Shown: one piece after another, positions 63,346 through 63,995 of the stretch
How the letters are laid out: the number at the start of each line of letters is the position of its first letter
How positions within the stretch are numbered: the stretch's first letter is position 1
NCBI GenBank assembly: GCA_020722565.1
Contig: DYKO01000010.1
Coordinates: 42,673-106,672 of the forward strand
Direction: 5' to 3'
DNA: 64,000 bases
DNA from: Rikenella microfusus
Lineage (GTDB): Bacteria; Bacteroidota; Bacteroidia; Bacteroidales; Tenuifilaceae
Position numbers and translations under genes: made by a program
Notes under the pieces: generated by a model
What the model was told of the DNA's origin: nothing
Databases searched by the model: none
The model's input: the letters and a program-made list of their open reading frames with translations, nothing else

Positions 63346-63418
<73 letters not shown>

Positions 63419-63426
63419 CTAAATAT

Positions 63427-63457
63427 CCCCGCTACACGGCGGGGTTTTTGTTTTTTT
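63427..63457 (+). terminator. Intrinsic terminator after tRNA-fMet (duplicated at 63795-63827)
   Basis: ccccgc-tacacg-gcgggg-tttttg-T7; the second copy is identical but has T9. Confidence 0.75.
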
Positions 63458-63460
63458 GCC

Positions 63461-63709
63461 ATGTTTGCCGTTTACGCCATTTACTCCGACAAATACGATA
63501 AAATTTACATCCGCGCCTCCGCTAACCTTCAGGCTAGAATTGCTGCACATAACCACCCAAACAATAAGGGCTGGACCAAGCGTTTTCAGCCATGGAGGCT
63601 CGTTTACTCCGAATCATTCCCCACCAAAACCCAGGCGCTTGCGCGCGAAAAACAGCTCAAGCAGCACTGCGGCAAAGATTTTATTCGTTCCATTATACCC
63701 AATCCCTGA
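63461..63709 (+). CDS. Small stand-alone GIY-YIG nuclease family protein (YIG altered to YIR)
   Basis: 'VYAIYS...KIYIR...ARIAAHN...KGWTKRFQPWRLVYSE...ALAREKQLK' has the GIY-YIG layout with the Arg and Glu catalytic positions retained. Confidence 0.85.
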   Translation: MFAVYAIYSDKYDKIYIRASANLQARIAAHNHPNNKGWTKRFQPWRLVYSESFPTKTQALAREKQLKQHCGKDFIRSIIPNP

Positions 63710-63786
63710 GCTCCTTGGGCTCTTATCCGGCTTCGCCGGACGCAGGTTCGAGTTCCGGCTTCGCCGGACGGGCTCTGCCCCCGCTA
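63709..63786 (+). pseudogene. Degenerate tRNA-fMet fragment interrupted by palindromes
   Basis: 63709-63725 matches tRNA 63366-63382 at 15/17; 63741-63753 equals tRNA 63393-63405; 63775 onward equals the tRNA 3' end. Confidence 0.85.
63726..63770. repeat. Two identical 17-bp REP-like palindromes tccggcttcgccggacg
   Basis: Copies at 63726-63742 and 63754-63770; stem tccggc/gccgga with a TTC loop. Confidence 0.9.
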
Positions 63787-63830
63787 CTAAATATCCCCGC
63801 TACACGGCGGGGTTTTTGTTTTTTTTTGCC

Positions 63831-63995
63831 ATGTTTGCCGTTTACGCCATTTACTCCGACAAATACGATAAAATTTACATCGGCGTCTCCGCTATGCATT
63901 CTTCCACAAAAAAATTTCTTTCCGAATTACTAAATCATCTGCTTTATCTATTTTACAAACATCAGGAACTCACTAAACTTCAAATATCAAATTAA
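63831..63995 (+). pseudogene. Truncated second GIY-YIG copy
   Basis: MFAVYAIYSDKYDKIYIGVSA with intact YIG, then unrelated AT-rich sequence after 63894; stop at 63995. Confidence 0.8.

Follow-up and report, generated by a model that had tools for sequence, protein, structure and literature searches.

A hairpin-bearing partial tRNA closes a tRNA-nested GIY-YIG unit in Rikenella microfusus

Near the right end of a 64,000-nucleotide stretch of Rikenella microfusus DNA (GenBank assembly GCA_020722565.1, contig DYKO01000010.1, positions 42,673 to 106,672 of the forward strand; hereafter the window, by which we mean this whole stretch) lies a tRNA relic, at 63709-63786, that carries two identical palindromes. 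It is well supported that this relic is a partial tRNA with hairpins and forms the end of one unit of a cassette, which is nested at an intact tRNA gene and encodes a small GIY-YIG nuclease. The architecture recurs behind several tRNAs in other genomes, the hairpin is coupled to the nuclease gene, bases of the hairpin stem are substituted in pairs, and the locus is polymorphic among sister species. Taking this description together with a mechanism by which such units could be copied, we hold with moderate confidence that the relic is the end-piece of a tRNA-nested GIY-YIG/hairpin mini-cassette. Each unit comprises an intact tRNA, a terminator, a gene for a GIY-YIG nuclease of ~80 amino acids (aa) that lacks a DNA-binding domain, and a second, incomplete copy of that tRNA, in which the GC-rich hairpin of the cassette (two hairpins in the window) takes the place of a short segment; units can follow one another head to tail, and arrays close with a 5' stub of the gene. 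For the window itself the message is smaller, namely that the relic is no functional tRNA but probably a decaying copy.

Architecture of the tRNA-Met locus

The modules of the locus lie in the order tRNA, terminator, 82-aa GIY-YIG gene, hairpin-bearing partial tRNA, terminator and 21-codon gene stub, at the following window coordinates, which were checked by script.

63346-63419, + strand: intact tRNA-Met(CAT) of initiator type (ARAGORN; Rfam tRNA, 68 bits)
63427-63457, + strand: intrinsic terminator 1, CCCCGCTACACGGCGGGG followed by a T-run (terminator scan); 63427-63444 in a narrower delimitation
63461-63709, + strand: gene for an 82-aa single-domain GIY-YIG nuclease (list of open reading frames; Pfam PF01541, E=1.7e-14)
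63709-63725, + strand: start of the partial tRNA, with the 3' strand of the D-stem, the 5' strand of the anticodon stem and a loop in which CAT is changed to CTT (alignment A3)
63726-63740, no strand assigned: hairpin 1, TCCGGCTTCGCCGGA, in place of tRNA positions ~38-47 (ACCCAAAGGT) (alignment A3)
63741-63753, + strand: retained 5' strand of the T-stem and T-loop, CGCAGGTTCGAGT, between the hairpins (alignment A3)
63754-63774, no strand assigned: hairpin 2 (the identical 15-mer, 63754-63768) and a CGGGCT linker, after the T-loop and replacing one C (alignment)
63775-63786, + strand: retained remnant of the T-stem 3' strand and 3' strand of the acceptor stem, CTGCCCCCGCTA (alignment A3)
63795-63828, + strand: intrinsic terminator 2, which repeats terminator 1 but is longer by two T (alignment, terminator scan); 63795-63812 in the narrower delimitation
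63831-63893, + strand: 21 codons of another GIY-YIG copy, left as a 5' stub, MFAVYAIYSDKYDKIYIGVSA, with Gly18 kept (tblastn)

An earlier note on this DNA had read the segment as the remains of a tRNA in which a hairpin was placed precisely at two sites, by substitution or insertion. Alignment to the intact tRNA-Met supports that reading, and all that the note states about the sequence itself is correct. Homology begins at AGCTC in the 3' strand of the D-stem (pairwise alignment), and the anticodon reads CTT rather than CAT, as the note had stated, within a loop of CTCTTAT that is CTCATAA in the intact tRNA. The alignment likewise confirms that the palindrome takes the place of the 3' anticodon strand and variable loop, and that a second, identical palindrome follows the T-loop together with CGGGCT where the intact tRNA has one C. 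What the earlier note missed is that the relic tRNA, the terminator and the gene stub belong together as a single repeat of a cassette that is nested at tRNAs and widespread. The duplication runs past the end of the tRNA, across the terminator and 21 gene codons, to 63893, and it is nearly unchanged over this extent, with two substitutions and a length difference of two T. The right junction of the insert falls at 63893|63894, where the sequence reads ATGCATTC. The whole insert spans ~436 bp, and the 82-aa GIY-YIG reading frame is the only open reading frame inside it.

The intact tRNA shows initiator traits: its anticodon stem has GGG/CCC at the lower end, and its 1:72 position is unpaired and flagged by Rfam as non-standard; we take it to be an initiator from its sequence and textbook identity rules. 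Two further CAT tRNAs are present elsewhere in the genome. ARAGORN and Rfam gave no credible call at 63709-63786, where the best Rfam match reached 21.9 bits against a threshold of 55 (scan at E<=10); the relic is no functional tRNA and probably a decaying copy. The position and architecture of hairpin 1 are shared with 18 distinct tRNA-Met copies of other genomes, and the site of hairpin 2 holds TCCCGC-loop-GCGGGA plus CTGGCT in genomes of the same genus and TCCGCCCGAGGCGGA in genome G175. The middle anticodon base is altered in several hairpin-bearing tRNA-Met copies, to CTT in the window (63720-63725) and at loci L044 and L052 and to CCT at L037; most other such copies keep CAT.

We also searched for the palindrome itself. 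Within the window the 15-mer occurs twice only, against an expectation of 0.05 matches at up to two mismatches. No further exact copy exists in the 2.84-Mb genome beyond these two, and a looser pattern search recovered a one-base variant, TCCGGCTGCGCCGGA, in a partial copy of tRNA-Gly(GCC) on contig C16 (48840-48930; locus L070, ~540-625). There, the variant replaces the inner anticodon stem-loop of the partial tRNA, which lies downstream of a tRNA-Gly/tRNA-Leu(TAA) pair and includes 21 nucleotides (nt) of tRNA-Gly 3' flank. No GIY-YIG gene was found near this relic; the genome contains one gene of this GIY-YIG kind and the stub. The hairpin in this genome is therefore not dispersed and is confined to partial tRNA copies at two tRNA loci.

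Recurrence of the unit and its hairpins across Bacteroidota

Of 401 Bacteroidota genomes, 258 gave a match at E<=1e-8 to a protein profile built from alignment A1, and tandem gene copies with a period of 320-382 bp were frequent (e.g., five in G101, eight in G175 and five in G398). Some hits of the hairpin pattern away from tRNAs in G004 and G274, which recur in clusters or match sequence that we judge from its letters to be rRNA-like, were left out of the cassette count. The arrangement of tRNA-Met, terminator, nuclease gene and second tRNA copy occurs in records of Paludibacteraceae, Prolixibacteraceae, Lentimicrobiaceae, Chitinophagales, Cytophagales and Bacteroidales, and the second tRNA-Met copy of these six lineages has CCGTCAGCTGACGG, CCGCCGGCTGGCGG, CCGCCAGCTGGCGG or CCGCCGGAGGCGG in place of positions ~38-47. 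In a Saccharibacteria record, TCCGCCAGCTGGCGGA stands immediately upstream of the nuclease gene. Each of 20 arrays examined begins with an intact tRNA-Met, Asn, Phe, Ser or Val, and the place of the hairpin follows the tRNA type: the D-arm in Phe, the 5' strand of the anticodon stem in Asn, the 3' strand and variable loop in Met, and the T-loop in Val and in a second Asn lineage. About 10-11 nt of tRNA are replaced in most of these types, and G175 carries both hairpins, as does the window. Arrays end in a 5' gene stub that breaks off at codon ~24-28 (L036), ~34 (L022), ~30 (G004) or 21 (window), and G034 holds just a tRNA, a terminator and a 33-codon stub.

The coupling of hairpin and GIY-YIG gene that the earlier note had suspected is supported by position. 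Among 63 related gene copies that come from many genomes and have sequence downstream, 52 are followed, 16-80 nt after the protein match, by a perfect TC...GA hairpin whose stem measures 6 bp or more, compared with 1 of 63 for equal windows inside the reading frame and 0 of 63 for shuffled windows; the hairpins that follow gene copies belong to a family of the form TCCGSC-N2-4-GSCGGA. To exclude pairing as a selection criterion, a second set was chosen by tRNA flanks alone. All 18 distinct TC-initial inserts of 14-16 nt that were recovered in this way from tRNA-Met copies are palindromic, 16 perfectly and two with one mismatch, and their stems read CCGGC, CAGGC, CCGCC or CCGTC. Among 33 distinct hairpins, pair counts revealed double changes at five of six pairs. 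Several hairpins are palindromes even at their centre (CAGCTG, CCGCGG), and a single change would make many others so, which suggests DNA symmetry rather than an RNA loop.

Further repeats were seen in other settings. In G274, seven copies of a repeat of more than 140 nt that contains TCCGCCGGCTGGCGGA lie away from tRNA and GIY-YIG genes (L056, L058, L063-L067). The same genome holds four gene-less 160-bp units upstream, not downstream, of an intact tRNA-Gly(TCC) (L060), each a 5' tRNA copy with TCCGCCGTTTGGCGGA and a second insertion in the T-loop. In G181, 145-bp tandem repeats each centre on an extended palindrome, GGACAAGGCAA-TCCGCCTGTGGCGGA-TTGTCC (L074, L075), and the stretch examined there gave no tRNA or GIY-YIG match.

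The locus in relatives and the nuclease

We compared the same tRNA-Met locus in relatives, in which it is flanked by the same genes. In G001, a genome of the same genus, the tRNA and terminator are followed directly by ATGCATTC, which is the sequence found in the window from 63894 onward. G001 therefore represents the empty site, and the insert of the window amounts to ~436 bp, or 1.3 units. Unit counts at this locus are 1.3 in G000 and 2.3 in G004. An in-frame stop interrupts one of the G004 gene copies, and the G004 hairpins have the sequence TCAGGCCAAGCCTGA or TCAGGCTAAGCCTGA at the first position and TCCGGCCTAGCCGGA at the second. Taken together, the locus shows presence/absence polymorphism among close relatives, as expected of Seg-type free-standing homing endonuclease genes.

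Other relatives carry gene-less tandem arrays of one to six units of 146-150 bp, found in G002 (L009), G003 (L008), G006 (L007), G007 (L005) and two metagenome contigs (L076, L077). These units contain CGCAGGTTCGAGT, TCCCGC-loop-GCGGGA, CTGGCT, CTGCCCCCGCTA, a terminator and a 70-nt spacer, such that hairpin 2 sits at the identical place by the T-loop, with a stem that differs in sequence but is again complementary. Degeneration is in every case greatest in the unit at the far end from the tRNA, a pattern suggesting that the tRNA-proximal side is where new or homogenized units arise. We considered whether the 70-nt spacers are remnants of the GIY-YIG gene left by internal deletion; local alignment scores were no better than those of shuffled sequences and lend this no support. 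G002, G003 and G006 encode related nucleases at tRNA-Val loci, together with hairpin-bearing tRNA-Val copies. At two tRNA-Val(TAC) loci of the same genus (L078, L080), the nuclease belongs to another GIY-YIG clade, TCCCGCC-loop-GGCGGGA replaces the whole anticodon stem-loop, and hairpin-bearing tRNA-Val fragments flank the intact tRNA-Val on both sides.

The protein encoded in the window has PF01541 as its sole Pfam match, over residues 2-70 of 82, with no other domain; it stops at residue 82, and Pfam detected no C-terminal DNA-binding module. Among proteins of solved structure, the closest in sequence are 1zg2 and 1ywl of UPF0213 (E=1.5e-6 and 2.2e-5), together with SLX1. At codon 18 (63512-63514) an arginine replaces the near-invariant glycine of the YIG motif (KIYIRASA), which is glycine in 10 of 10 aligned relatives (A1), and the corresponding codon of the stub, at 63882-63884, keeps the glycine (KIYIGVSA). 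Because G18R affects the sole complete copy, that copy may be inactive. Intact Met-type homologues with Gly18 include the second G004 copy and the G010/G021 gene. With this substitution, a second gene copy reduced to a stub and a mutated anticodon in the relic, the cassette copy of the window is probably decaying.

A tree of 43 homologues indicates that relatedness of the nucleases tracks tRNA type rather than host. Labels of the associated tRNA change six times on the tree, against a minimum of five and a mean of 17 for shuffled labels, and none of 200 shuffles gave a count as low. The tree is poorly resolved because it draws on just 79 columns, and its sampling is biased to Met-type matches. 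Met-type proteins from different classes cluster together, and Val-type proteins of the same genus fall far from the Met clade and group with hairpin-flanked homologues that have no nearby tRNA. Hairpin-flanked, tRNA-free homologues (L029-L035) form a clade separate from the Met-type proteins.

Proposed mechanism, known systems and alternative explanations

We infer that the hairpin serves as a recognition handle for the nuclease, presented in single-stranded or cruciform DNA as in the Ssn/SRM pairs described below. Breaks beside the hairpin would be repaired by recombination with the adjacent tRNA or with an incoming homologous one, and this repair would copy and amplify the unit while the host retained one intact tRNA throughout. 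The conserved tRNA could also provide the homology for spread between genomes.

Two known systems resemble this scheme in part. Ssn proteins are single-domain GIY-YIG enzymes that cut single-stranded DNA, and not double-stranded DNA or RNA, beside the NTS/SRM hairpins found at the flanks of the enzyme genes (Chenal et al., Nat Commun 2025, PMC11893778). The authors noted a likeness to insertion sequences, and the term 'tRNA' appears zero times in their paper (PMC11893778). The Ssn enzymes and the cassette proteins are alike single GIY-YIG domains of ~80-95 aa that are devoid of a DNA-binding domain, and the 82 aa found in the window agree with the ~90-100 aa taken as typical of Ssn; in both systems the genes are accompanied by GC-rich hairpins of 14-30 nt, and the stems vary by lineage, which suggests co-evolution of enzyme and hairpin. 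Distant homologues at L031 and L033 show the classic layout of hairpin, gene and hairpin. Unlike in the Ssn systems, the cassette hairpins lie inside partial tRNA copies, the units are tandem, the hairpin is not dispersed in this genome, and no oriented flank is conserved at the hairpins.

The second system is SegB, a free-standing GIY-YIG homing endonuclease of tRNA clusters in T4-like phages, which cuts within tRNA genes at RAWTSGAAC, a T-loop sequence on the opposite strand, and drives recombination-dependent tandem amplification of tRNA and truncated segB (PMC13096335). As with SegB, a GIY-YIG gene is located among tRNA genes, the repeated units consist of a tRNA part and the gene, and the arrays end in a truncated gene; the PF01541 domain of the cassette protein is also that expected of Seg-type homing endonucleases. 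In contrast, SegB is phage-borne, larger, equipped with DNA-binding modules and hairpin-free, and the tRNA it amplifies is intact, whereas the cassette is chromosomal, encodes a bare 82-aa domain and carries tRNA copies disabled by a conserved hairpin. Stand-alone UPF0213/Slx1-like GIY-YIG proteins (1zg2, 1ywl) share the minimal domain, and the GW-T...PW motif of the cassette protein resembles SLX1, but no function has been assigned to those proteins, nor has their genomic context been described. A survey of the GIY-YIG superfamily reports neither tRNA linkage nor hairpins (Dunin-Horkawicz et al. 2006, PMC1564403). Our full-text literature search returned no account of tRNA-nested GIY-YIG/hairpin arrays, although most subscription journals lay outside its reach and absence there is no proof.

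Several points weigh against the cassette and its proposed mechanism. The activity, binding and mobility of cassette members are predictions from sequence, and host recombination between direct repeats could produce tandem arrays without a nuclease. The hairpin occurs at just two tRNA loci in this genome, and the only full-length gene here has a substitution at an invariant motif residue. In contrast to the oriented NTS, no motif is common to the hairpin flanks of different tRNA types, and the SRM motif HGTCWYN(0-2)YYVSBRHN(0-5)WNVSBRGN(0-2)RNCYNB matched zero times in the window, zero times in 139 kb of related loci and once in the genome, and therefore the cassette hairpins are not SRMs as defined. 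The nearest solved relatives of the protein are UPF0213 and SLX1, and it does not demonstrably belong to the Ssn clade cd10448 (GIY-YIG_unchar_3). The 70-nt spacers of the gene-less units have no detectable similarity to the gene. Finally, the set of 33 hairpins was preselected for perfect stems, which makes its 98% pairing partly circular, and we therefore place weight on the flank-anchored set and on the positional association.

A bolder version of the proposal, which we consider possible but doubtful, is that these cassettes form an undescribed class of nuclease-only mobile or amplifying element. In such an element, a bare GIY-YIG domain would be guided by a folded single-stranded DNA hairpin and its tRNA flanks, and break-induced copying would duplicate part of the target tRNA rather than disrupt it. 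The two-hairpin form of the window and G175 would present the 13-nt T-loop segment GGTTCGAGT as a single-stranded site for cutting or pairing, and the gene-less arrays of 146-150-bp units would be non-autonomous, kept in trans by related nucleases whose genes lie at other tRNA loci. Of the unannotated 'nuclease family protein' genes in Bacteroidota, small stand-alone GIY-YIG genes are some of the commonest, and if they do form selfish cassettes in tRNA operons, this would account for many of the odd pseudo-tRNAs, the tandem repeats close to tRNAs and the assembly breaks that occur at tRNA loci. The concept of hairpin/nuclease pairs that Ssn introduced in 2025 would then gain a tRNA-targeted form, the tRNA amplification driven by phage SegB would have a cellular counterpart, and the development of single-stranded DNA tools could draw on natural pairs of hairpin and nuclease whose stems vary.

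We weighed whether the hairpin-bearing tRNA copy is instead a structured RNA, transcribed with the nuclease mRNA, whose hairpins are RNA helices and which might act, for instance, as a tRNA-like element for 3' processing or stabilization or as a decoy; the earlier note had raised a structured RNA as well. The maintenance of the hairpins through paired substitutions is consistent with this explanation, as is the position of the element on the sense strand of the tRNA and GIY-YIG gene, between the reading frame and the terminator. The relic region also folds below shuffled sequences as RNA (z=-2.6), with z=-3.3 as DNA, and ARAGORN calls some full-length copies tRNA-like (L021, L039). However, the element matches no Rfam family, no RNA run was found to contain this locus, the lone metatranscriptome match covers the conserved tRNA only, and an array in a complete genome gave RNA matches at the level of the tRNA only. 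A different part of the tRNA is replaced in each tRNA type, and the remnants are cut to varying extents. The centre-palindromic hairpins (CAGCTG, CCGCGG) point to DNA symmetry, and the gene-less arrays retain the hairpin where there is no reading frame to serve. We conclude that an RNA function of this kind is unlikely.

We likewise think it improbable that the hairpin is a passive patch that interacts with no nuclease and merely inactivates the duplicate tRNA or breaks its homology with the intact one. Every hairpin does destroy a stem of the cloverleaf, and in several lineages the tRNA-Met copies have, in addition, a different middle base in the anticodon, both of which would fit such a role. 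Inactivation would not need a single family, TCCGSC...GSCGGA, shared across tRNA types, orders and the Saccharibacteria record, and it leaves unexplained the presence of two hairpins in one relic and of hairpins in gene-less arrays. The handle proposed above for a GIY-YIG nuclease is our preferred reading of the hairpin.

Direct repeats of the 3' part of a tRNA are a classic sign of islands that integrate by means of an integrase. In that case, an island or phage with an integrase would have used the 3' end of the tRNA for attachment and left the partial tRNA behind as an attR-type duplicate. The repeat does start inside the tRNA and reach its 3' end, and the intact tRNA is kept, as in att duplications. 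In contrast to these, the ~436-bp insert contains no integrase or other tyrosine or serine recombinase and encodes the 82-aa GIY-YIG protein alone; the repeat extends 120 bp past the tRNA into the terminator and gene, sub-kilobase units stand in tandem with periods of 146-382 bp, and the hairpin substitutions have no counterpart in att sites. An integration scar is therefore very unlikely.

We give equally little credence to a dispersed palindrome in the strict sense of REP/BIME elements and their RAYT enzymes, an analogy that the earlier note had drawn. The pairing of a hairpin palindrome with a neighboring nuclease gene and the amplification of gene-less hairpin units are reminiscent of such systems, and some other genomes, such as G274, hold many TCCGCC...GGCGGA copies off tRNAs. 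The analogy fails in that the enzyme is a GIY-YIG protein rather than an HUH Y1 transposase, and in that the hairpins are nested in tRNA copies with no genome-wide dispersal; REP palindromes number tens to hundreds of extragenic copies, and the two exact copies and one variant in this genome all lie within partial tRNA copies. The earlier note had named a palindrome unique to this site as an outcome that would count against it, and the genome-wide count returned that outcome for the REP-like version; exact and fuzzy counts together rule out REP-like dispersal in this genome.

Finally, an artefact of assembly or scaffolding near the contig end, to which a 100-N gap located 217 bases downstream might point, is scarcely credible given that gene, stub and both palindromes lie together on a contig of the independent Logan assembly, at matching depth, that a second contig bridges the gap, and that homologous architecture occurs in dozens of other genomes. 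In the Logan assembly of run X1, positions 63482-63881 fall in a single 398-nt contig at a depth of 27, compared with ~36 for the flanks, and because this contig covers gene, palindromes and stub alike, the feature is not a product of scaffolding. X1 is probably the source biofilm sample, and the Logan assembly would therefore represent a different assembler applied to the same data. The scaffold gap itself, at 64003-64102 and 3' of the relic, is spurious, with the 20 bases AATATCAAATTAATATCAAA present on both sides. A 9.3-kb Logan contig that starts from 63852 crosses the gap and joins its two sides directly, skipping 120 bases, which shows that the gap is a 20-nt overlap and that the sequence on either side is continuous, with none missing.

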